Positions 739-16,563 of a stretch of 32,000 nt of DNA are shown here, piece by piece. The notes beneath the pieces were generated by a model. The model did no database searches. It saw only the letters and a list, made by a program, of their open reading frames with translations, and had not been told where the DNA came from. Source of the DNA: Gammaproteobacteria bacterium (GTDB lineage: Bacteria > Pseudomonadota > Gammaproteobacteria > JBIOEC01); assembly GCA_965279305.1 (NCBI GenBank), contig OZ257143.1:390001-422000 (forward strand), in the 5' to 3' direction. The translations under genes were made by a program, and so were the position numbers. Position 1 is the stretch's first letter. Each line of letters begins with the position of its first letter.

Positions 739-1959
739 TTAAATACCCACACCTTGCGTTAACGAGAAAATAGGCATCAGTACTGCTAATACAATTAACA
801 ATACCACTCCGCCCATCACTAAAATAATAATTGGTTCTAATAAGCTTAAAACACTTCCAATTAACGTGTCTACTTCTTTATCCTGAATACTCGCCGCTCT
901 TTCTAACATGGAAGACAATTGTCCGCTGGCTTCACCGTTAGCGATTAAATGTATCATCATCGGCGAAAAATAATGCGTATCTTGTAAGGAGCGAGAAATA
1001 TTCGCGCCTTCTCTTACACGTGCCGTAGCTACTAATACAGCTTCGCGCATAGGCATATTAGTAATCACTTCTGCACCGGTGCGCATAGCTTCTATTACAG
1101 GCACACCTGACGCCGTTAAAATGCTAAAAGTATGTGCAAATCGCGCCGTATTTAATGTGCGCATCACTTTTCCGATCAGCGGAATAGTGAGTTTAAATGC
1201 GTCTGCTTTTTTTCGTACATCCGGATTTTGCACCATTCGGCGCCACACTATATACGCCACTGCTAATAATAGTAGCACATACAAACCATACGTTTGTAAT
1301 ACACTGCTAATAGCAATTAACCCTAATGTTAAACCAGGTAATTCTTGTCCAGTATCAGCAAATACCGAAACAATATTCGGCACAATATACATCATTAAGG
1401 CTAATACAATTAAAGCAGATACTACTAACATTAAAATAGGATACACCGACGCTTGTTGTATTTTTTGTCGAATAGATTGTTGTTCTTCGGTATATTCAGC
1501 CAGTCTTTCTAATACAGCACCTAATTTACCGGATTCTTCGCCGGCTTTTACCGTTGCTCTATATAATTCTGGAAATATGTGTGGAAAATCGCCTAAGCCT
1601 GATGCCAGCGAAAAACCTTCCATTACTTTTGATCGCACCGCAATTAAAATACTTTTAATGCGTGCTTGTTCTGTTTGTTCAGCTACGCCTTTTAATGCTT
1701 CTTCTACGGGTAAACCTGCACTTAATAAAGTGGATAATTGGCGCGTTAATAAGGCTAAATCCGCTACTTTTAAGCCACGTTTAAATCCCCACTGACGAGA
1801 CGTTTCACGACGTTGTTGATCAGCCACACCTTTGACAGTGAGTGGAACTAAATTACGTTCGCGTAATTGCTGACGCACTTGGCGTTCAGTATCAGCTTGC
1901 AATACGCCTTTTTGCTCACGGCCTTGCGCATCCAACGCTGTATATTCAAATGCCGCCAT
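739..1959 (-). CDS. gspF: Type II secretion inner-membrane platform protein GspF
   Basis: 406 aa with a duplicated GspF/PilC-type cytoplasmic domain and three TM segments. N-terminus MAAFEYTALDAQGREQKGVLQADTERQVRQQLRERNLVPL is typical of GspF. It sits between gspE and gspG. Confidence 0.93.
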   Translation of the reverse strand: MAAFEYTALDAQGREQKGVLQADTERQVRQQLRERNLVPLTVKGVADQQRRETSRQWGFKRGLKVADLALLTRQLSTLLSAGLPVEEALKGVAEQTEQARIKSILIAVRSKVMEGFSLASGLGDFPHIFPELYRATVKAGEESGKLGAVLERLAEYTEEQQSIRQKIQQASVYPILMLVVSALIVLALMMYIVPNIVSVFADTGQELPGLTLGLIAISSVLQTYGLYVLLLLAVAYIVWRRMVQNPDVRKKADAFKLTIPLIGKVMRTLNTARFAHTFSILTASGVPVIEAMRTGAEVITNMPMREAVLVATARVREGANISRSLQDTHYFSPMMIHLIANGEASGQLSSMLERAASIQDKEVDTLIGSVLSLLEPIIILVMGGVVLLIVLAVLMPIFSLTQGVGI

Positions 1960-1973
1960 TCCTTATTCCTTCT

Positions 1974-3437
1974 TTAGGTCTCCGTCGTCACTCGCATCAC
2001 TTCTTCAATCGTCGTATCGCCTTCCAATATGCGGCGCACACCATCATCTCTAATGCTTTTCCACTTACTATGCGCCATGGCTTCCATATCTAATTCACCG
2101 GCACCATCATTAATCATTTTGCGCAAATCATCATCGACCGGAACCACTTCATAAATACCGGTTCTTCCGTAATAACCCGAACCATTACATTCAGGACATC
2201 CTACAGGGCGGCCAATCATAGGAGGATGCGCGGGATCTTTTCCTAAAAAAGCACATTCCGCTTCAGTAGCAGGGCTTTCTGTTTTACATTTTTTGCATAA
2301 TACACGCACTAATCGTTGTGCAATTAAACCCACTAAACTTGAAGATAATAAAAAAGACTCTACGCCCATATCACGTAAACGTGTAACAGCACCAATAGCG
2401 GTATTTGTATGCAAAGTAGATAATACTAAATGACCGGTTAAACTCGCTTGCACGGCAATTTCAGCAGTTTCTAAATCTCGTATTTCACCTATCATCACCA
2501 CATCGGGATCTTGTCGTAAAATAGCGCGTAATCCTTTTGCAAACGTCAGTTCAATTTTAGAATTAACTTGGGTTTGTCCAATGCCAGGAATATCATACTC
2601 AATCGGATCTTCAATGGTTAAAATATTACGAGTGGTTTGATTTAAACGCGTGAGCGATGCATATAAAGTAGTTGATTTACCAGCACCGGTAGGACCTGTC
2701 ACTAAAATAATTCCGTGTGGACGTGACAGCAACGATTCCATAATAGTTAAACCTTCAGCCGACATGCCCAATTGTTTTAAATCTAAACGTCCCGCTTGTT
2801 TATCAAGTAAACGTAATACCACGCGTTCACCATGATTAGAAGGCATGGTAGATACACGAACGTCAATGGCACGTCCACCAATACGTAACCCGATACGACC
2901 ATCTTGAGGTAAACGTTTTTCAGAAATATCAAGTTTCGCCATTACTTTAATACGTGAAATAATTAAAGGCGCCAGTGCGCGTGGGGGTTTTAAAACCACA
3001 CTTAATACACCATCTCTACGGAAACGAACTAGCAGTTCATTCTCATAACTTTCTATATGAATATCTGAGGCATTTTCTTTGATAGCCTGGCTAAGCAAAG
3101 CATTAATCAAGCGAATAATAGGCGCATCATCTGCACTTTCCAACAAATCTTCAGGATGCTGTAGTTCTTGCGCCATGCTTTGTAAATCTAATTCATCACC
3201 AATATCCGCGGCCATTTGCTCAGTTTGCATAGCATTAGTTTCATACACGGCTACTAATAAATTATTAAATTCATCACCACTCACTAAACGCAATTGAATA
3301 GGCTGCCGAATACTACGACGTACTTCCATTAAAATCATGGGATCCGTTTTTGAGGTGTATAGCAATTCAGGTGGCGTAGTAGGGTTTATAATGACATGGT
3401 GGCGTTTGGCATAACCAAATAAAAGTGGTTTTATCAT
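1974..3437 (-). CDS. gspE: Type II secretion ATPase GspE
   Basis: Walker [10 protein letters not shown], Asp and His boxes, Walker [18 protein letters not shown]-terminal tetracysteine motif CKKC...[17 protein letters not shown]. Confidence 0.95.
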
Positions 3438-3442
3438 AATAA

Positions 3443-5560
3443 TTAATTAAATGGTTGTGGCAATGGTAATCCTTCAGGCTTATCTTGCTCCCATGGCATA
3501 AAGCGGGATTCCGCTAAATTAGGATTACCTTCCAAGCTTGATAAAATTTGTTCATCGCGAATAAAGTTATATTTATTTTTCGTGATCTGATTAGCTTCTA
3601 ACATATCACGCATGATAGAAGGACGAATAAATATCATTAAATTCGTTTTTCTGGTTTCTTTAGTGGTATTTCGGAATGCCTGGCCAATAATAGGAATATC
3701 GCCTAATACAGGCACTTTTTGTATCACTTCGGTTTCAGTAGATTGAATTAAACCACCTAATACTAAAATATCATTATTGTTTACCATCACTCGTGTGCTA
3801 ATCATACGGTTACTGGTAGTAGGCTGATCGTTCGTATCGGTTAATATATTATCTACGCGTTGCATAATATCTAATTGTATTAGATCGCCTTGAGAAAGCT
3901 GAGGTTTAATAATTAATTCTAAACCTACTTCACGATATTCAATAGTATTAAACGGCGTTACCGTTGCAGTGGTATCGGTGGTTGCATAAGAACCCGTTTC
4001 AAACGCAACTGCGTCACCCACACTAATACGCGCTTCTGCATTATCCATAGCCACAATACTAGGCGTTGCTAATACGTTACTGCTGCTATCAGAGCTCAAT
4101 GCATGTAATAAAAACCGTAATGATCCATTATGAATAATACCTACGGTTAAACCCGATCCAGGTAAGTCGCCTTGCGCTAAACTATCGTTATTTCCATTCA
4201 AACTATTTTGGTATTGATTTAATAGACCATTTCCATTATCCCAGCCCACACCACCGGCTAATGCACCGCCGCCTCTCCACTCAATACCAAATTCATTATT
4301 ACGATCAGCGGACACTTCGGCAACTACAGCTTCAATCATGACTTGTGCGCGGCGAACATCTAATTGTGAGATAACAGCACGTAAATTACGCATTAAAGAA
4401 GGTGGCGCAGTAATAATTAAAGCGTTCATATTAGGCTCTGCTTGCACGCCATAAGATCCGATTACTGTTCCAGTTGCTTGGCGCTCAGGCGTTTGGAAAC
4501 CGGTAAACGTAGAAGCACCGCCGGTTGAAGAAGTAGAAGTGGTGCTAGCGGCTAATGAACGATTAGGTGTTGCGCGTGACACAGAAGCGGTAGTGCTATT
4601 AGCAGTAGCACCACCTGAAGTACTAAAATAACTGCTGAGAATATTGCTCAATACAGGCACTAATTCTTCTGCACGCTGATATTGCAAATAAACTACTTCG
4701 GTATTGCCTAACTCATCTCGCGGCACATCTAATTGCGCGATAAGAGAACGCACTTTTAAACGTTGTGATTTATCTCCGCTAATAATAACTACATTACTTC
4801 TGTCATCAGCGGCTAATGCAACAGGACCTGCAGCATTTCCTCGATTAGACGCAATAACCGTATTCAAAGATTCTACTACTTCACTTGCAGTAGCATGCTC
4901 AAGTACAACCACTTCTGCACCATCAAATTCTTCGCGATCAATACGCTCAATGACTTCGGTTAATCGCGCCACATTACTTTCTCTATCAGCAACAATAATT
5001 ACGTTTGATGGTGCATATGCAGCCAAATGGCCTTGTTGTGACACTAAGTTACGTAATACAGGCACCAATGCAGCAACGCCTACATGACCTACAGGAATTA
5101 CGCTAACCACTAAACTGTCACCCGGTTGATCGGTACCTGCAAAAGGTAACGCTAAATATTTGGCATTGGCATCGGGAACAATTTTAATAATATCGCCAGC
5201 AGGAACTGCTGAAAAACCTAATACTTGTAAAACAGAAAGATATACTTGATACAATTCGTCAGGGCTCAACTGTTTATTGGAAACGATGGTAGCTTTACCG
5301 TTAACAGCAGGATCGATAATAAAACTTTTTCCGGTTTCTCTCGCAACTTGTTCAGTGACCGTGCGAATATCTACATCACGTAAATTCCACATGCGGCGAT
5401 TAGGTTCTTGAGTGGGTTGTGTACCGGTAGTGTTGATCACACCGATTTGTTGATCAGCAGGTAAGCTTGACGTTGAATTATTTTCAGGTGTAGATGCAGC
5501 CCACACTACTGCTGCAGCGGGCCATAAGGTACACCAGATTATCATGAGTAAACGTCGCAT
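3443..5560 (-). CDS. gspD: Type II secretion outer-membrane secretin GspD
   Basis: Signal peptide, N0-N3 type repeats, and a C-terminal secretin core ([20 protein letters not shown]..., [34 protein letters not shown]). Carries an S/T-rich low-complexity linker. Confidence 0.93.
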
Positions 5561-5624
5561 GACTTCCCTTTAGGACGGTTGCAAAACGCGCGCTTTGCTG
5601 TGTCCTTGTCCTGGTTATAAGTTT

Positions 5625-6131
5625 TTAATGCTTACCCTCTTCTAACTTCTTTTGAGGAAGCATTAACGCTTCGAGTTGACCGGCTCGACGTAAAATAACC
5701 CGGTCTTCATAAATATCTAATAATACCGCCCCGCCTGGCACAGTATCACCGATTAAGTATACGTGATCTTGTTTGCCAGGAACAGCAATAATTGCAGATC
5801 CCATCTCTTCATTTGGATCACTGTAAATGCCTTTTAAATCTAACTGCAAAGTAGTTTGAGGTAAGTCGCTCAAATTTTGTTCGAGGTTTTGTCCAAACAA
5901 ATGTAATTCGGTTAATTTATTTAACGGTAGTGCTTCTGATGGTGCTTCAACAGGTTGAGAAGGCACTAAATCGGCTGGCATAGGTGGTATTTGAAAACGC
6001 CACCACCACTGAATCACAGCAGCACCTAAAACAATGCACAAAAAAAGAACTAACCAAGCCACTGGCGGCTGATTTTGCCACTCATCGAACTCTTTAAAAA
6101 ATGAATCGTTCCATTTTTTCCAAAAGATCAT
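5625..6131 (-). CDS. gspC: GspC-like T2SS inner-membrane component (short form: TM + HR domain, no PDZ)
   Basis: First gene of the gsp string, with an aagga RBS before the ATG. One N-terminal TM (VAWLVLFLCIVLGAAVIQWWW). C-terminal segment VYLIGDTVPGGAVLLDIYEDRVILRRAGQLEAL resembles the GspC homology region that contacts secretin N0. The assignment rests on position plus this motif. Confidence 0.55.
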   Translation of the reverse strand: MIFWKKWNDSFFKEFDEWQNQPPVAWLVLFLCIVLGAAVIQWWWRFQIPPMPADLVPSQPVEAPSEALPLNKLTELHLFGQNLEQNLSDLPQTTLQLDLKGIYSDPNEEMGSAIIAVPGKQDHVYLIGDTVPGGAVLLDIYEDRVILRRAGQLEALMLPQKKLEEGKH

Positions 6132-11548: not shown

Positions 11549-11875
11549 ATGAGCTATTTTTCTAAATTTGTTACAACTTCAAAAAATAAAACCCTAGTAC
11601 TGTTTTTTTTGCTAGCCAGTTTTTTCTTTTTACAGTATCACTTTCTTGAACATAATTTTTCTCATACTGAAACAGGCGAACCTGTTTCATCTTGTTTGAT
11701 TTGTTTTAAATCGAATCAATCAGAAGAAATGTTTCCACCTGTTACCTCCCCGTATTTACCTTTTATTTTATGTGCATTTTTAGCTTTTTTCTTATTTTAC
11801 TCTAACATCAACACCCCCACTTTTCTGCTCCCCCATACCCGAGCACCACCCTTATTTACCTCGTTTTGTTTTTAA
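11549..11875 (+). CDS. Hypothetical small membrane protein (orphan)
   Basis: 108 aa with two hydrophobic segments and a CLIC motif. I cannot assign a recognisable family. An AT-rich hairpin (cccaaaa-taaa-ttttggg, 11882..11899) follows. Confidence 0.35.
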   Translation: MSYFSKFVTTSKNKTLVLFFLLASFFFLQYHFLEHNFSHTETGEPVSSCLICFKSNQSEEMFPPVTSPYLPFILCAFLAFFLFYSNINTPTFLLPHTRAPPLFTSFCF

Positions 11876-11935
11876 AAATTACCCAAAATAAATTTTGGGG
11901 AGCTGTATTTTAATTGCATTTTTGAAGGTGATTTT

Positions 11936-12556
11936 ATGTCAAATAAACTTAATCGCTATGAAACATTTCATAGTATGCTAAATCAACTATCCAAACCTCA
12001 TGTGAAAGCTTGGTTAATCGTAGAATGTGGCTATGATCTAAGCGAACTAGAAAAAATTATAGGCTATGCACAAGTAACCTACGATCTTTTATTAATGCTA
12101 GATAAAGATAGCAAGGATTTTAAATTATGGGATATAACCCGTAAAAATCCAAAAAAAATATCACCAGTTATACTCGATCATTTCAAGTCAAATCCAGTTA
12201 CAGCGGCTTTTACGATGAATATATGTCTAAAGCTTTTAACGATAAAAGATGAGCTGCCCTTTGGCGTTACCAATATGTGTACACGAAATCTTGTGAGAGA
12301 ACCGTTTATGAGCGATAATTATGTAAAAATATGGTCTCACCTTCTGAAAGGACACACATCATTTGTTCATCTTTATTGTTATGATAGAAGAAAACCTTTT
12401 ACAGATAGATTTTCATTTTTAAAGAAAATTTCATTTTCCTGGTTATGGAATATATGTAAAGAGTACAAAACCACGTATAGCAGCTATACATACACAGAGC
12501 ATCCCATTAATTCAGCACCTGAACCACGGGAGACAATGAGACCTTCTTATCGATAA
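11936..12556 (+). CDS. Hypothetical protein (orphan, soluble, effector-candidate)
   Basis: 206-aa ORF with no recognisable motif. Very AT-rich and Lys/Asn-rich. Convergent with the ThiF/LeuA-like operon. Confidence 0.4.
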   Translation: MSNKLNRYETFHSMLNQLSKPHVKAWLIVECGYDLSELEKIIGYAQVTYDLLLMLDKDSKDFKLWDITRKNPKKISPVILDHFKSNPVTAAFTMNICLKLLTIKDELPFGVTNMCTRNLVREPFMSDNYVKIWSHLLKGHTSFVHLYCYDRRKPFTDRFSFLKKISFSWLWNICKEYKTTYSSYTYTEHPINSAPEPRETMRPSYR

Positions 12557-12606: not shown

Positions 12607-14013
12607 TTAGTCTTTCAAACTACTGTTATAATCAGGCGCTAATACGATATTCCAATAAGTTCCAGAACCGCCTATATAATAGTAACTATGCTTAACTCCA
12701 GCAGGAATATAAATAGTAGAAGGACTTTCTATATCATACTCTTCATCATTTAATAGAACACGGCAAGACAAACCCTTTCCATCGGGTTTATTTCCCCAAA
12801 AAATAAATACGCTAGGACAATGGTGAACATGTGCATCTACATGTCTTTTTTCTTCCAGGGGTAAATTTTCCAAGAGTTCCTGATTAAAAATTCGTTGAAT
12901 AACGTACAAAGACGTTCGAGGATCTATACGTTTATCTAACATTAGCCAACGTACTCCTGGTCCATCACGATGATATTGCAACTCACTCGCAGGCTTAATA
13001 CAAGGCTTATTGATGGGTAATATTTTTTTAAACCTATTCACATTTTCATTACGATTCTCTGAAGCAACAAACCGGCGTGTCTGTCCAAACATTTCTGGTT
13101 TAATACCCTCATATGAATTGACGTTACGTTTCATTGCTTTCTGATGATAAACACTCGTATGACTAAAAACATGGCTGCCAATAATAGGCCGCATGGGATC
13201 GGGCATAAATCCAATAAGGTTAGATAATATAGTGCTAAGAGAGTAAGCATCTGACAATGAAAAACGATTGTCTTTATAAAATTGATTTAAGCAGGCTGTT
13301 AATTGAAAAAGATCCGTAATACCCGCTCGTTCACCTAAACCTAAAGCTGACACATCAATTGCATCTACGCCTGCTTCAATGGCAGCAACAGCATTCGCTA
13401 AAGCCAATCCAAAATCATTATGCAAGTGAACTTCAATAGGACAATTAAATTTTTCTTTACATTTTTTTATCAATGCAGAGCAAGAATGAGGATGCCATAC
13501 CCCCACGGTATCGGCCAAACTAATTCGATCAGCGCCTGCTGACAATGCAATATCAATCGTTTTTTGCATCAATTCCCAGTCAGTGCGAGAAGCATCTTCG
13601 ATTGTAAATCTTACCTTTAGCCCCAATTTTTTAGCCAAAGAAACAGAATCTTTCGCCTGCTCCATCACCCACTCAAGTGTTCGCTCTGTAAATTTAGTTT
13701 CTAATGCTAAATCATTTACTGAAATCCAGATCCCCACCCAATCAGCGCCTGTTCGTGCTGCACTTTCAATTTCTTTGGTGCACGATCGGGCATGTACTAA
13801 GGTAATAATAGAAGAAGATAATGCTCTTATCACTGATGAGCAATGTAATTCAGATTCATTATCAATACCAGGATGCCCTATTTCAATAAGATCCACCCCG
13901 TATTCATGCAAAAGATTAGCTAATATAATTTTTTCATTAGCAGAAAAGCAAACGCCTGGATGCTGCTCCCCTTCTCGCAAGGTACAATCTACAATTAAAG
14001 GTTGGTAACTCAT
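12607..14013 (-). CDS. LeuA/NifV-family (DRE-TIM, HMGL-like) 2-oxoacid:acetyl-CoA condensing enzyme fused to a C-terminal cupin domain
   Basis: N-terminal DCTLREGEQ (compare DTTLRDGEQ). Metal-site motifs EVHLHNDFGLALAN and GLGERAGIT. Family motif HQKAMKRNVNSYEGIKPEMFG (compare HQDG..K....YE...PE..G). The last ~90 aa carry cupin-like AHVHH...IYIPAGVKH motifs instead of a LeuA regulatory domain. The start overlaps the upstream stop (ATGA). Confidence 0.75.
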   Translation of the reverse strand: MSYQPLIVDCTLREGEQHPGVCFSANEKIILANLLHEYGVDLIEIGHPGIDNESELHCSSVIRALSSSIITLVHARSCTKEIESAARTGADWVGIWISVNDLALETKFTERTLEWVMEQAKDSVSLAKKLGLKVRFTIEDASRTDWELMQKTIDIALSAGADRISLADTVGVWHPHSCSALIKKCKEKFNCPIEVHLHNDFGLALANAVAAIEAGVDAIDVSALGLGERAGITDLFQLTACLNQFYKDNRFSLSDAYSLSTILSNLIGFMPDPMRPIIGSHVFSHTSVYHQKAMKRNVNSYEGIKPEMFGQTRRFVASENRNENVNRFKKILPINKPCIKPASELQYHRDGPGVRWLMLDKRIDPRTSLYVIQRIFNQELLENLPLEEKRHVDAHVHHCPSVFIFWGNKPDGKGLSCRVLLNDEEYDIESPSTIYIPAGVKHSYYYIGGSGTYWNIVLAPDYNSSLKD

Positions 14014-14858
14014 AGCGTAGTATTATCCCAGCTTTCTCCATTATCAGGTTTTACAACCATCACCATATTTTCCGATGATAAATCGACTTTAATGAGTTCA
14101 GGCGCTATCACTGGAGATAATCCATCACGTTTAATTAACCATTTCATGGCTTCAAAAGAAGCCAATAAACCCACCATATTTGCCACAGGGCAAATTACAG
14201 CCCAAGGTAACGTTTTATGAATAAATCCTTCTCCCCATTCCGGCAATGCCCCTTGTTTTACTGAATAGTTAGCTCTACCGTCTTTAATTTCTTCAATTTT
14301 CTTTTTTATTTCAGAAGACAATGGTTGCTGATAAGAAGGATGTTGCAACACTTTTTCATAGGGAATACCGTTAGGAATGAAATTCATCAAACCACCTCTA
14401 AAAGGAGGAGTGACAGCAATCCACACAGAAGGAATTTTCAAAAGAGCGGCAGCTCTATGAATAATTACTCTAGATACTAAATTATCGGTAGCATCAATAA
14501 TAACATCGCTATCTGCTAGTAATTGATTAGCATTATCTTCTGTTAAGCGGGAAACGTAGGTATCTATTTGGATGGTTGGATTAATATCTCGTAATATTCT
14601 GGCTGCTTCTTCAGCTTTTGATTTGTTTTGGTTACTGATAAACCCTAACATTTGTCTATTTATATTACTTAATTCAAAAACATCATTATCAACGATTCGA
14701 ATAAAACCCACGCCTAGTCGTGCCAGTGAAAGCAAAGTAATTCCTCCCACACCACCAGCACCGACAACAGTTACACGTCCATTCTTTAATCGACTCTGTT
14801 CTTCTTTTGTTAATACACCGTAATTTCGTGTATAAATTTGATTATATACTTCTACCAT
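14010..14858 (-). CDS. ThiF/MoeB/HesA-family (E1-like) adenylyltransferase, paralog 2
   Basis: Rossmann loop VVGAGGVGG, DNDVFELSNINRQ and IDATDN motifs. No CxxC zinc motifs, no rhodanese domain and only one Cys. Collinear with the upstream paralog. Confidence 0.8.
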   Translation of the reverse strand: MVEVYNQIYTRNYGVLTKEEQSRLKNGRVTVVGAGGVGGITLLSLARLGVGFIRIVDNDVFELSNINRQMLGFISNQNKSKAEEAARILRDINPTIQIDTYVSRLTEDNANQLLADSDVIIDATDNLVSRVIIHRAAALLKIPSVWIAVTPPFRGGLMNFIPNGIPYEKVLQHPSYQQPLSSEIKKKIEEIKDGRANYSVKQGALPEWGEGFIHKTLPWAVICPVANMVGLLASFEAMKWLIKRDGLSPVIAPELIKVDLSSENMVMVVKPDNGESWDNTTL

Positions 14859-14867
14859 ATTTTCTCT

Positions 14868-15731
14868 TTAAAAATGTTCTGCCTGCCAAAAACCTGATCC
14901 GGGTTTTGCTAATCGAATCGGTTGCTCATGATTTAAATCTATTAATAGTGATTCAGGAGCTGCTGCAAATAATGAATTCCCCATCAATACTTCAATAGCA
15001 GCATGTACAGAAAAAGTGGCTAATAAACTCGCTCGAATAGGTGTAATAAGCCAACTCGCTTTTCCCTGGCAATAGTCATCTGCCCATTCTTTAGGCGCAC
15101 CTTGGCTAACTGAATATTGTGCACGTTTATATTTTACTTCTTGCAATAATTTTTCTGTTGATGAATTTAATATTTGGCCTTTAGAGGGTAAATTTAATGC
15201 TTCTTCATACTCTATACCTGTAGGTAAAAAAGTACTGATCCATCCTCGTTGTGGTGGGCTGCCAGACATGGCAATACTCGGAATCCCTAATGTTTTAGCA
15301 GCACGATGAGCACAAACCCGCGCAAACATATTATCTAAACCATCAATAACTACATCATGGTCTTTTATTAAATCAATAACATTGTCTGGGGCCACTTCTT
15401 GTGTTAAAAACTGATGAGATAAATAAGGATTAATACGTAACAATTCTTTTTCAGCACTTTGTGTTTTGTATTTCCCTAAGGTATCTGTATAAGCAAACAT
15501 TTGGCGGTTTAAATTGCTTACCTCAAAAATATCGGGGTCAACGCCTGTAATATGCCCAATTCCCATACGAGCACATAGCATAGCAGCCATTCCACCTACG
15601 CCCCCTAGGCCTAAAATAATGACCCGCGAGTGCCGTAATGTTTCTTGCTGAGCTGGCGTATAAACCCCAATATTTTTAAAGGTCAGTTGTTGATAAAACG
15701 CATCTTCAACAGGTGTAATAAAATTTTCCAT
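14868..15731 (-). CDS. ThiF/MoeB/HesA-family (E1-like) adenylyltransferase, paralog 1
   Basis: ILGLGGVGG, DPDIFEVSNLNRQ and IDGLDN motifs. Shares paralog-specific blocks with the downstream gene (HRAA..L.IPS, PP.RG, GI.YE, RA.YSV.QGA.PEW). A 9-nt gap separates it from paralog 2. Confidence 0.8.
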   Translation of the reverse strand: MENFITPVEDAFYQQLTFKNIGVYTPAQQETLRHSRVIILGLGGVGGMAAMLCARMGIGHITGVDPDIFEVSNLNRQMFAYTDTLGKYKTQSAEKELLRINPYLSHQFLTQEVAPDNVIDLIKDHDVVIDGLDNMFARVCAHRAAKTLGIPSIAMSGSPPQRGWISTFLPTGIEYEEALNLPSKGQILNSSTEKLLQEVKYKRAQYSVSQGAPKEWADDYCQGKASWLITPIRASLLATFSVHAAIEVLMGNSLFAAAPESLLIDLNHEQPIRLAKPGSGFWQAEHF

Positions 15732-15764
15732 TACTTAAAAAACATAGTGTTGGATATATTCCAG

Positions 15765-16184
15765 TTATTCTGGCCCGTTTTGAATTTGCTGGTAATGGGG
15801 TTTTGGAGCCGCATATTTATATCCTGCATAAGCTGCAACAAGAGATGCTGCAGCTAATACGGATAAAGCAATACCGGCAGCATTATATTGAGTAGCTGTT
15901 TGCGTTTCGGTTTGTTGACCTCTAATACAATGCTCCACCATCTCATCTGCAATGGCAAGAGCAGCGGTAACATAAGACCAGTTTCCTGTTGCCAATGCGG
16001 TAGTTAACATTTGAGATTGTTCTGTAAATGTTGCTTCGCTTTCTGCATGAGCTTGAGCTCCATCATTATGTGTATTACGAAGCGTAAAGGTGAGCGCAGC
16101 TCCGGTTGCAAATGCTGCGGTAGCTACTGCAGCAACGGAACAAGCGCTTTCTCTAGCTAATTTTAAATAATGTGTTACTAGCAT
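15765..16184 (-). CDS. Ala-rich 139-aa hypothetical protein with hydrophobic Ala/Thr segments (first gene of the ThiF cluster)
   Basis: aaggag RBS lies 7 nt before the ATG. Segments SACSVAAVATAAFATGAALTFTL and AAGIALSVLAAASLVAAYAGY look membrane-embedded. Locally GC-richer than its neighbours because of Ala codons. No family recognised. Confidence 0.55.
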   Translation of the reverse strand: MLVTHYLKLARESACSVAAVATAAFATGAALTFTLRNTHNDGAQAHAESEATFTEQSQMLTTALATGNWSYVTAALAIADEMVEHCIRGQQTETQTATQYNAAGIALSVLAAASLVAAYAGYKYAAPKPHYQQIQNGPE

Positions 16185-16224: not shown

Positions 16225-16563
16225 TTAAACATCTAATAATGCATTGACTTTGGCAGCGCAAATCAAATCATTTTCAGTTAAACCGTCTACTGCATGAGTC
16301 GTATAGCGCACCGTACATTGATCAAAACTCACTTCCATATCAGGATGATGCCCTTCTTGATGGGCAATCCACGCCACCGCATTTACAAACGCCATGGTTT
16401 TTCCGTAACCTTTAAATTTGAAAGTGCGGGAAATAAATTTACTGTCAGTAGATAAATTCCACTCAGGTAATTGCTTTAAAAATTCTTTCACTTGTGAAGT
16501 ATTCAACACAGGTACTCCGCCTTCGCAACCCACACATTTCATTTCTTTTAGCAATTTTTCCAT
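16225..16563 (-). CDS. phhB: Pterin-4-alpha-carbinolamine dehydratase
   Basis: 112 aa with EGHHPDMEVSFDQCTVRYTTH motif. Overlaps the phhA stop by 16 nt. Confidence 0.9.
   Translation of the reverse strand: MEKLLKEMKCVGCEGGVPVLNTSQVKEFLKQLPEWNLSTDSKFISRTFKFKGYGKTMAFVNAVAWIAHQEGHHPDMEVSFDQCTVRYTTHAVDGLTENDLICAAKVNALLDV

Follow-up and report, generated by a model that had tools for sequence, protein, structure and literature searches.

ThiF-like enzymes, as reviewed in 2025, include ThiF, MoeB, TcdA, MccB, PaaA, GrcB, EnfB, IndF and OxzB. The review covers precedents in this fold for formation of an acyl-adenylate followed by its intramolecular capture, and makes no mention of isopropylmalate or homocitrate synthase, of a cupin or of a tandem arrangement (PMC12596934). 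A ThiF-family gene lies beside a homocitrate synthase (HCS) gene in the hesA–nifV pair of nif clusters (PMC3961195), where the biochemistry of HesA is still unsettled (PMC6361004). Here we analyse a 32,000-nucleotide stretch of a Gammaproteobacteria bacterium genome (assembly GCA_965279305.1, contig OZ257143.1, positions 390,001 to 422,000 of the forward strand; hereafter the window), in which two tandem genes for ThiF-fold proteins, ThiF_A and ThiF_B, are followed by a gene for an HCS-like enzyme fused to a cupin (the HCS/cupin fusion). The three-gene cassette is real, conserved in other genomes and built from known enzyme folds, and it is apparently uncharacterised.

Four intact genes occupy the minus strand. 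In order of transcription they encode an Ala-rich protein of 139 aa with two transmembrane (TM)-like segments and no Pfam match (15765–16184), ThiF_A (287 aa, 14868–15731, Pfam ThiF E 2.1e-38), its paralogue ThiF_B (282 aa, 14010–14858, Pfam ThiF E 1.4e-45) and the fusion protein (468 aa, 12607–14013). ThiF_A and ThiF_B are ThiF/E1-fold adenylating enzymes. Residues 1 to ~320 of the fusion form a DRE-TIM domain followed by HCS_D2, residues ~320–335 a linker and residues 335–468 a cupin (12610–13011), the last supported by an AlphaFold model, a Foldseek search and an invariant motif. The original prediction, made from the DNA letters, had described a 33-nt gap between the 139-aa gene and ThiF_A, a 9-nt gap between ThiF_A and ThiF_B and a 4-nt ATGA overlap of ThiF_B with the fusion gene; all are reproduced from the coordinates of the open reading frames (ORFs), and the translations end in NGPE, AEHF, NTTL and LKD as it had listed. 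Chance is excluded because the ORFs are long in a sequence of 38% GC and the family scores very strong. The 139-aa gene is preceded by a good AAGGAG ribosome-binding site. Promoter and terminator scans gave counts no higher than in shuffled sequence and a hairpin 3' of the final gene is not significant (z −0.88), so the limits of the operon are set by spacing and synteny only. Rfam at gathering thresholds finds no riboswitch or T-box leader upstream of the cassette, either in the window or in the 10 complete loci described below.

In Paenibacillus, Frankia and cyanobacteria, hesA–nifV places a ThiF/MoeB-family gene directly beside an HCS gene within one operon, as here. The two arrangements differ in that hesA–nifV has a single ThiF-family gene, a NifV without cupin and a setting within a nitrogenase cluster, whereas in the present cassette the ThiF genes are two paralogues, the synthase is fused to a cupin, nif genes are missing and the hosts include non-diazotrophs. 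A full-text search of the literature found no description of a ThiF pair with an HCS/cupin protein. The curated families of NCBIfam, Pfam and PADLOC give matches at superfamily level only, and none of the solved structures searched describes the cassette. The original prediction held that no characterised pathway combines these parts; this agrees with the literature as far as a description of the cassette is concerned but is too strong for the combination of a ThiF protein with a homocitrate synthase, which, given hesA–nifV, is not wholly unprecedented (PMC3961195).

The genes for ThiF_A, ThiF_B and the HCS/cupin fusion are found in the same order and on one strand in 10 complete loci and two related fragments. 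The hosts of the complete loci are members of the Bacillus cereus group, Hazenella, a Bacillus metagenome-assembled genome (MAG), Allofrancisella, Oscillatoria, Fluviispira and three gammaproteobacterial or Pseudomonadota MAGs. The genes usually overlap or nearly abut, and ThiF_A is always first. The flanking genes are unrelated from locus to locus, which indicates that the cassette moves as a unit. The original prediction had looked to conservation of the triad in unrelated genomes, none of its members being characterised, and this is what the 10 loci represent, none of them reaching a curated family; the order is kept in the sister strain (L089) and beyond. Full-length homologues of the fusion (46–53% identity at 98–100% coverage) are spread over many phyla, with hosts in the Bacillus cereus group, Brevibacillus, Parageobacillus, Thermoactinomycetaceae, Fluviispira, Oscillatoria, Francisella/Allofrancisella and many MAGs. 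For ThiF_B, a database search gives 236 clusters at E ≤ 1e-20, the best 120 of which are all at least 55% identical to it, and in ~38 of the ThiF_B clusters the longest contig has exactly the same length as that of a fusion-protein cluster, an indirect sign of further co-located pairs. A profile scan of genome contigs with generic HCS peptide patterns returned mostly ordinary archaeal homocitrate synthases and five useful loci. Most cassette loci carry a gene for an alpha/beta-hydrolase of 342–387 aa inserted 5' of the fusion gene, and in the Bacillota and Oscillatoria loci a DUF441 membrane protein of ~145 aa is inserted at the same place. The hydrolase has an N-terminal signal sequence, which in Bacillus includes a lipobox (LISGC, by direct reading), and is thus extracytoplasmic. 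Two MFS genes follow the cassette in one locus only (L011). We tentatively, and with some reserve, regard the three enzymes as a self-contained cassette that has spread horizontally and makes a small molecule.

Several loci show additional neighbours. In Allofrancisella (L003, 2471–5120) and in a Pseudomonadota MAG (L008, 54–3976) a MMR_HSR1-type GTPase gene lies just upstream of ThiF_A, overlapping it in L008; upstream there are also a 576-aa TPR/Sel1 protein in L003 and proteins of 569 and 495 aa without Pfam match in L008. The GTPase and the large upstream proteins may be accessory genes. In the Bacillus cereus-group loci L001/L002 (4745–9419 and 12211–17419) the cassette is located ~2.8 kb upstream of a bacillibactin-type dhb operon encoding an isochorismate synthase, DhbE-like and DhbB-like proteins and a non-ribosomal peptide synthetase (NRPS). 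A Scytonema homologue of the fusion (L010, 47% identity, with neither cupin nor ThiF) was considered as a decayed cassette and rejected; downstream of it there is no trace of a cupin, and it is thus a paralogue standing by itself.

More distant paralogues of the fusion (~42% identity) retain the cupin motif and adjoin an Asn-synthetase-like enzyme and a TauD-like oxygenase, not ThiF genes. Since AsnB-like enzymes also adenylate carboxylates, the fusion enzyme is paired with ATP-dependent carboxylate activation in two independent contexts. The paralogues of these apparently undescribed clusters (L092, 3427–9882; L093, 3630–9120; L004, 5241–11995) have REGMQ or REGCQ in place of REGEQ. One cluster type contains TauD-like and AsnB-like proteins, a carrier protein, an acyl-CoA dehydrogenase, a SerRS (seryl-tRNA synthetase)-like ligase, MbtH and an NRPS. 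A second type, from Pseudomonas lijiangensis, contains two citrate synthases.

The N-terminal part of the fusion matches Pfam HMGL-like (PF00682; E 3e-58, 197.6 bits against a cut-off of 29) and HCS_D2, the post-barrel subdomain of homocitrate synthases (E 8e-8). The DCTLREGEQ, HLHND and YEGIKPEMFG motifs of a DRE-TIM enzyme, which the original prediction had pointed out, are read directly in the translation. In 14 family members there is no variation at the catalytic R13 and E14 of LREGEQ, at the HxH metal ligands H196 and H198 or at H285, H290 and Y301 of subdomain II, and these residues align with the catalytic residues of homocitrate synthases. The highest-scoring NCBIfam model is the LysS_fung_arch homocitrate synthase (283.6 bits, cut-off 413.55), ahead of nifV (261.9 bits, cut-off 462.9), leuA_bact (188 bits, cut-off 599) and citramal_synth (138 bits, cut-off 450), and none of these cut-offs is reached. 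The closest solved structures are the homocitrate synthases 6ktq (Sulfolobus, 34% identity), 3ivs (yeast) and 2ztj (Thermus), at 30–34% identity overall. From the 2ZTJ/3IVT structures we take His72, Arg133 and Ser135 of the Thermus enzyme to be the residues that bind the C5-carboxylate of 2-oxoglutarate. In pairwise alignments they correspond to H74, R135 and T137 of the fusion, of which H74 and R135 do not vary within the family, whose members have either T or S at position 137. In the isopropylmalate synthase of Cytophaga, Glu stands in the position of R135. From these residues we infer that the N-terminal domain is a competent Claisen-condensing enzyme for a 2-oxo-dicarboxylate, most simply 2-oxoglutarate. 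The earlier label of a LeuA/NifV-type synthase is therefore right as to a DRE-TIM Claisen enzyme, but the best models, the structures and the C5-carboxylate residues make it homocitrate-synthase-like and not LeuA-like. The DRE-TIM fold, the catalytic Arg, Glu and His, HCS_D2 and the residues for the distal carboxylate of 2-oxoglutarate are shared with homocitrate synthases (Sulfolobus, Thermus, yeast Lys20/Lys4, NifV and AksA) and with LeuA. Differences are that the fusion has the cupin where they have a regulatory RAM or LeuA_dimer domain and that the fusion gene lies outside a lysine or leucine pathway context.

Pfam finds no LeuA_dimer domain in the fusion, and in the region where it would be expected Cupin_2 (E 0.016–0.14) and AraC_binding (E 0.003) match below their gathering scores; sub-threshold Cupin_2 matches are seen in 4 of 11 family members, the best at E 0.016. 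The cupin that the original prediction had placed where LeuA has its regulatory domain is supported by a structure model and by conserved residues but lies below the Pfam thresholds. Residues 335–468, modelled with AlphaFold, have a mean predicted local distance difference test score (pLDDT) of 90; for the full-length fusion the value is 86.5, with a low-confidence linker at ~320–335. Foldseek gives 269 PDB matches to the cupin model at E ≤ 0.001, the 50 top listed all being cupin-fold with probability 1.0. At the top are 7eqk/7eu6 (non-heme iron epimerase/lyase), MarH (6j4b/6j4d), oxalate decarboxylase, DddK and KdgF; a domain profile built from 11 family members likewise matches MarH (E 0.002). 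The domain carries a family-invariant cluster, H391-V-D393-x-H395-x-H397-x-C399 together with H442, that is a probable metal site. In structure and in sequence, the C-terminal domain is closest to MarH and 7EQK-type small cupin epimerases. The titles of their PDB entries make MarH an epimerase of maremycin biosynthesis and the 7EQK type a non-heme iron epimerase/lyase. The substrate of MarH is a beta-substituted 2-oxo acid. These proteins stand alone and are 15–19% identical to the domain, which is fused here, has the HVDxHxHxC motif and carries Ser at the usual cupin Glu position; function is not transferable from MarH or 7EQK.

The metal-ligand-like cluster, invariant in the cupin, is one of the points that recommend a role in metal cofactor assembly as for hesA–nifV, in which homocitrate would serve as a metal ligand and the ThiF proteins would aid insertion of metal or sulfur into a metalloenzyme; another is the suppression of a hesA defect by high molybdate or by cystine (PMC6361004). 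We regard this role as improbable. No nif or other metalloenzyme gene is found near any cassette, the nifV model reaches 262 bits where 463 are required, the hosts include non-diazotrophs with small genomes, and a secreted hydrolase does not fit.

With Pfam ThiF (PF00899), whose gathering score is 28.1 bits, the two adenylating proteins score 155.7 and 132.3. As the original prediction had claimed, both keep the GxGGxGG loop, DxDxxxxSNxNRQ and DxxDN: direct reading of the translations gives GAGGVGG, VDNDVFELSNINRQ and DATDN in ThiF_B and GLGGVGG, VDPDIFEVSNLNRQ and DGLDN in ThiF_A. GxGGxGG, DxD...SNxNRQ, a conserved Lys and DxxD(N/D) are invariant across seven A-type and seven B-type orthologues. 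Both families end in a conserved tail, GxW(D/E)xxx(L/I/F), that is unusual for the ThiF fold and maps to 14868–14890 in ThiF_A and 14010–14035 in ThiF_B as well as to the orthologues. Across the cassette loci, identity is 51–57% between A-type proteins, 55–59% between B-type proteins and 33–40% between the two types; the A/B duplication is an old one, with both copies kept throughout. Enzymes of the E1 fold are obligate dimers, and together with the retention of both paralogues this suggests a heterodimer. ThiF_A and ThiF_B thus probably act as one, as judged from their co-conservation.

Source annotations call these proteins MoeB or sulfur-carrier adenylyltransferases, which are generic family names. 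Among solved structures the best sequence matches are indeed ThiF, MoeB and Uba4, at E 1e-16 to 1e-19 across the Rossmann half. The nucleotide and Mg motifs are shared, but the C-terminal ~130 residues do not align and the equivalog cut-offs are unmet (adenyl_thiF 125 and 101 bits against 275, MoeB 121 and 100 against 449, MoeZ 111 and 77 against 647). The SAMP-E1 equivalog likewise fails widely for both proteins, as do TcdA (57.8 and 66.1 bits against 304) and the Rv1355c-type model (55–66 bits against 476), and the nearest NCBIfam model is PRK08223, a 'hypothetical protein' (139 bits for ThiF_B and 108 for ThiF_A, cut-off 266). ThiF, MoeB and Uba4 differ further in having a ThiS/MoaD partner, zinc-binding CxxC pairs or a rhodanese. 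None of these is present in the cassette, and ThiF_A and ThiF_B contain no CxxC pairs, no rhodanese and no N-terminal peptide-binding domain. The annotations and the closest solved relatives would accord with ThiF/MoeB-type chemistry, in which a trans-encoded sulfur carrier or a small acid is converted to a thiocarboxylate and a homocitrate-derived thio-acid metallophore results. With these equivalog scores, with the annotation names being generic, and with no rhodanese, CxxC, ThiS/MoaD-like gene or cysteine desulfurase in any cassette locus, we consider such chemistry distinctly improbable.

The same scores bear on whether ordinary housekeeping genes (leuA, cimA or a lysine HCS together with TcdA, ThiF or MoeB) merely lie side by side, as the source annotations '2-isopropylmalate synthase' and 'MoeB' could imply. 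Close homology of the ThiF-like proteins to TcdA, coupled with an ordinary synthase gene, was what the original prediction had named as speaking against its interpretation. TcdA scores of 58–66 bits against 304 and LeuA, CimA, NifV and LysS models far below their cut-offs show no such homology. Every equivalog model being far under its cut-off, the cupin fusion and paired ThiF paralogues being specific to the cassette, and the cassette being patchily spread across phyla with unrelated flanks and no adjacent leucine, lysine, thiamine or molybdenum cofactor genes, a chance neighbourhood of housekeeping genes is barely credible.

The precedent of peptide modification is provided by MccB and PaaA. 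Both share the adenylation core of ThiF_A and ThiF_B (E 1e-10 to 1e-13), and PaaA operates with a second tailoring enzyme. They differ by a ~90-aa N-terminal peptide clamp and a co-encoded precursor peptide, both absent in the cassette; the Rossmann loop of ThiF_A and ThiF_B begins at residue ~33–41, and the alignments with MccB begin at MccB residue ~95. As for anti-phage E1–E2, Cap2 and Bil systems, in PADLOC the ThiF proteins match only the E1 adenylation segment of Cap2-like models (426–778 positions) and the other cassette proteins have no PADLOC match; E2 and JAB domains or partner genes are absent in the cassette. The original prediction had stated that no Gly-Gly-ended partner is encoded near these genes and that rhodanese, E2, JAB, YcaO and ThiG/MoaE are missing. 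Across the 32-kb window, no ORF of at least 40 aa has a GG end, also when up to 6 extra residues are tolerated, and none of these domains occurs among the window proteins scanned. Nor do the 10 complete loci contain a peptide clamp or RRE (a recognition element of RiPPs, peptides made by the ribosome and modified afterwards), an E2, a JAB or a ubiquitin-like protein (Ubl) gene. ThiS/MoaD-like genes and cysteine desulfurases are likewise missing from every cassette locus. Overlaps of the cassette genes with adjacent genes leave no place for a precursor in L008, and an all-against-all comparison of ORFs of at least 70 aa at the cassette loci reveals no conserved small ORF family. The lack of precursor, clamp, Ubl, E2 and JAB in 10 loci argues against an in-cis RiPP or Ubl system.

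These negative results also weigh on a related explanation, RiPP-like or ubiquitin-like, in which a trans-encoded ribosomal peptide or protein is activated by the ThiF pair, at its C-terminus or on a side chain, and the HCS/cupin enzyme supplies or installs a modifying acyl group. It draws on the habit of the family, nearly all characterised ThiF-like enzymes using proteins, peptides or tRNA (PMC12596934), on the resemblance of both ThiF proteins to the E1 adenylation domains of Cap2-type proteins of the cyclic-oligonucleotide-based antiphage signalling system (CBASS) and on the conserved tails of ThiF_A and ThiF_B. Against it stand the missing clamp/RRE, E2, JAB and Ubl genes of the 10 loci, the window without a GG-ended ORF, L008 without space for a precursor and the absence of a conserved small family among ORFs of at least 70 aa. 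On balance we consider it unlikely.

In the organism studied here the cassette has a reduced form. By tblastn neither the hydrolase nor the DUF441 gene is present in the 32-kb window, where ThiF_B overlaps the fusion gene directly and nothing is inserted. The sister strain L089 shares this hydrolase-free three-gene core, as does a lineage further removed (L091, where ThiF_B is 71% identical), and the Bacillus MAG (L009) is without the hydrolase too. In comparison with L089 the three enzymes have ratios of non-synonymous to synonymous substitution rates (dN/dS) of 0.12–0.24 at dS 0.03–0.08 and are thus functional genes under purifying selection.

The 139-aa gene behaves differently. Five homologues of its product are found among 1.8 billion representatives, and its position between phhB and ThiF_A is kept in L089/L090 and L094. 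The comparison with L089 (59–496) gives dS 0.43 and dN 0.23, the former about tenfold above the 0.03–0.08 of the neighbours. Changes cluster in the two hydrophobic segments (residues ~13–35 and ~99–123), whereas the polar central loop and the C-terminal tail YKYAAPxPHYQQIQNGPE are conserved. Such a pattern hints at recombination, or at diversifying pressure to which a membrane protein is subject. The possibility that the protein is a divergent DUF441 was rejected (hhalign probability 0.1%). A second hypothesis of the original prediction, adenylation-dependent modification of this co-encoded protein, gains from the placement of the gene directly upstream of ThiF_A in three related lineages (window, L089/L090 and L094). 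It is weakened by the absence of the gene from all cassettes outside the clade, which argues against a general substrate, and by evolution far faster than that of the enzymes (identity to the L094 counterpart is 33% where ThiF_B of that lineage has 71%). The two TM-like segments and the NGPE end, which is neither Gly-Gly nor the Asn or Glu end of known ThiF substrates, count against it as well, making such a modification very improbable. We treat the 139-aa protein as a clade-specific membrane accessory, not a substrate.

Within the ThiF-like enzymes the logic that we propose for the cassette is most like that of OxzB from tyrazolone biosynthesis, in which the ThiF fold adenylates a small-molecule carboxylate and intramolecular cyclisation follows (PMC12596934). 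However, OxzB is fused to a nitroreductase and partnered by an N-acyltransferase, the Rv1355c-type model related to it stays far from its cut-off as given above, and its substrate is an N-acyl amino acid, whereas that of the cassette is presumed to be a hydroxy-tricarboxylate. A small-molecule pathway that combines HCS condensation, handling by the cupin and two carboxylate activations by the ThiF proteins is our best reading of the sequence data, though a guarded one. In a first step the HCS domain would, as its conserved residues imply, condense acetyl-CoA with a 2-oxo-dicarboxylic acid, most likely 2-oxoglutarate, to a homocitrate-like hydroxy-tricarboxylate. The fused cupin, to which the fold and the invariant His/Asp/Cys cluster lend a putative metal, could then act on the 2-oxo acid or on the product in a reaction of the enolisation, epimerisation or decarboxylation type; alternatively it might be a ligand sensor, standing in for the regulatory domain of LeuA/HCS. 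In a third step ThiF_A and ThiF_B, as a presumed heterodimer, would each adenylate one carboxylate of the polycarboxylate with ATP, and the acyl-adenylates would be captured intramolecularly (giving a lactone, anhydride or imide) or by an amine (giving an amide). Finally, in most hosts the extracytoplasmic alpha/beta-hydrolase, sometimes with the DUF441 protein, would process or export the product; in the present clade the fast-evolving two-TM protein may have replaced the hydrolase and DUF441, or both may have been lost in its favour. In its most specific form, with a heterodimeric ThiF enzyme making two regiospecific adenylations of a homocitrate-type tricarboxylate that the fusion makes in situ, to give a new cyclic or strained polycarboxylate or amide that is exported and processed by the hydrolase, the proposal is somewhat unlikely to hold in every part. 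The first hypothesis of the original prediction, adenylation of the carboxylates of a polycarboxylate, thus persists as a reasonable but unproven best guess, with indirect backing.

A number of points weigh against a small-molecule pathway. OxzB is the only validated small-molecule enzyme among the ThiF-like proteins, for which peptide, protein and tRNA substrates are the rule (PMC12596934), and a trans-encoded peptide or Ubl substrate could lie beyond the reach of a 32-kb window. The cassette has no evident amine-supplying or ligase partner, and most loci are without a dedicated exporter. The heterodimer is based on nothing but the co-conservation of the paralogues, and the cupin could be purely regulatory. 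With the hydrolase missing here, the pathway end-point may differ in this organism. The fusion protein of the window has Pro at the nearly invariant D400; another family member (P0111) likewise has Pro at this position, so D400 is not essential. Established for the cassette are gene content, order, conservation, fold and the conservation of residues, and it is from these that we infer its substrate, product and protein–protein contacts.

The surroundings of the cassette, on a contig of 1.87 Mb, are those of an ordinary chromosome. For Rho, the best named matches are Gammaproteobacteria MAGs and a Coxiellaceae MAG at 83% identity. The 32-kb window contains type II secretion system genes (gspF, gspE, gspD and gspC; 739–6131, minus strand), xth, priA, argS and rho, and its GC content is even (~0.35–0.45), the cassette not standing out. 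Immediately upstream of the 139-aa gene, on the same strand and separated by 40 nt, are phhB (pterin-4a-carbinolamine dehydratase, Pterin_4a E 1e-29) and phhA (aromatic amino-acid hydroxylase, Biopterin_H E 4e-53) at 16225–17360. No terminator-like site is present in the 40-nt gap, and phhB/phhA are possibly in one transcript with the cassette. Two plus-strand ORFs without Pfam match (11549–12556), of 108 aa (hydrophobic) and 206 aa, run convergently towards the cassette's end, the 206-aa protein being kept in the sister strain (P0133). A plus-strand gene at 17520–18446 encodes a 308-aa protein with a C-terminal U-box (Pfam E 1.6e-8) after a hydrophobic stretch, a candidate effector of the eukaryote-like E3-ligase type whose exact sequence was not found in a collection of 15 billion proteins. 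The 944-aa protein encoded at 18486–21320, also on the plus strand, has a C-terminal eukaryotic-type Ser/Thr/Tyr kinase domain (PK_Tyr_Ser-Thr E 3.5e-35) and, by direct reading, a GHSLGG lipase-like nucleophile elbow in its N-terminal region, and is a candidate secreted effector. A host-associated lifestyle of the source organism is plausible.

If the product of the cassette is a small molecule, the cassette would extend the chemistry of the ThiF fold and introduce a novel polycarboxylate family, whose members might be metallophores, signals or inhibitors. In the most specific form set out above it would be a widespread, phylum-crossing small-molecule pathway with a mode of polycarboxylate activation that is of neither the NIS (NRPS-independent siderophore synthetase) nor the ANL (acyl-CoA synthetase, NRPS adenylation domain and luciferase) type, and it would suggest a biochemical role for the long-unexplained hesA–nifV pairing. 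The hosts, among them the Bacillus cereus group, Cyanobacteria, Fluviispira, relatives of Francisella and uncultured Gammaproteobacteria that look host-associated, include some of medical and ecological interest. Comparison with the cassette could help to explain why HesA accompanies NifV in nitrogen-fixation clusters, and the window offers a tractable, minimal three-gene version of the cassette for reconstitution.

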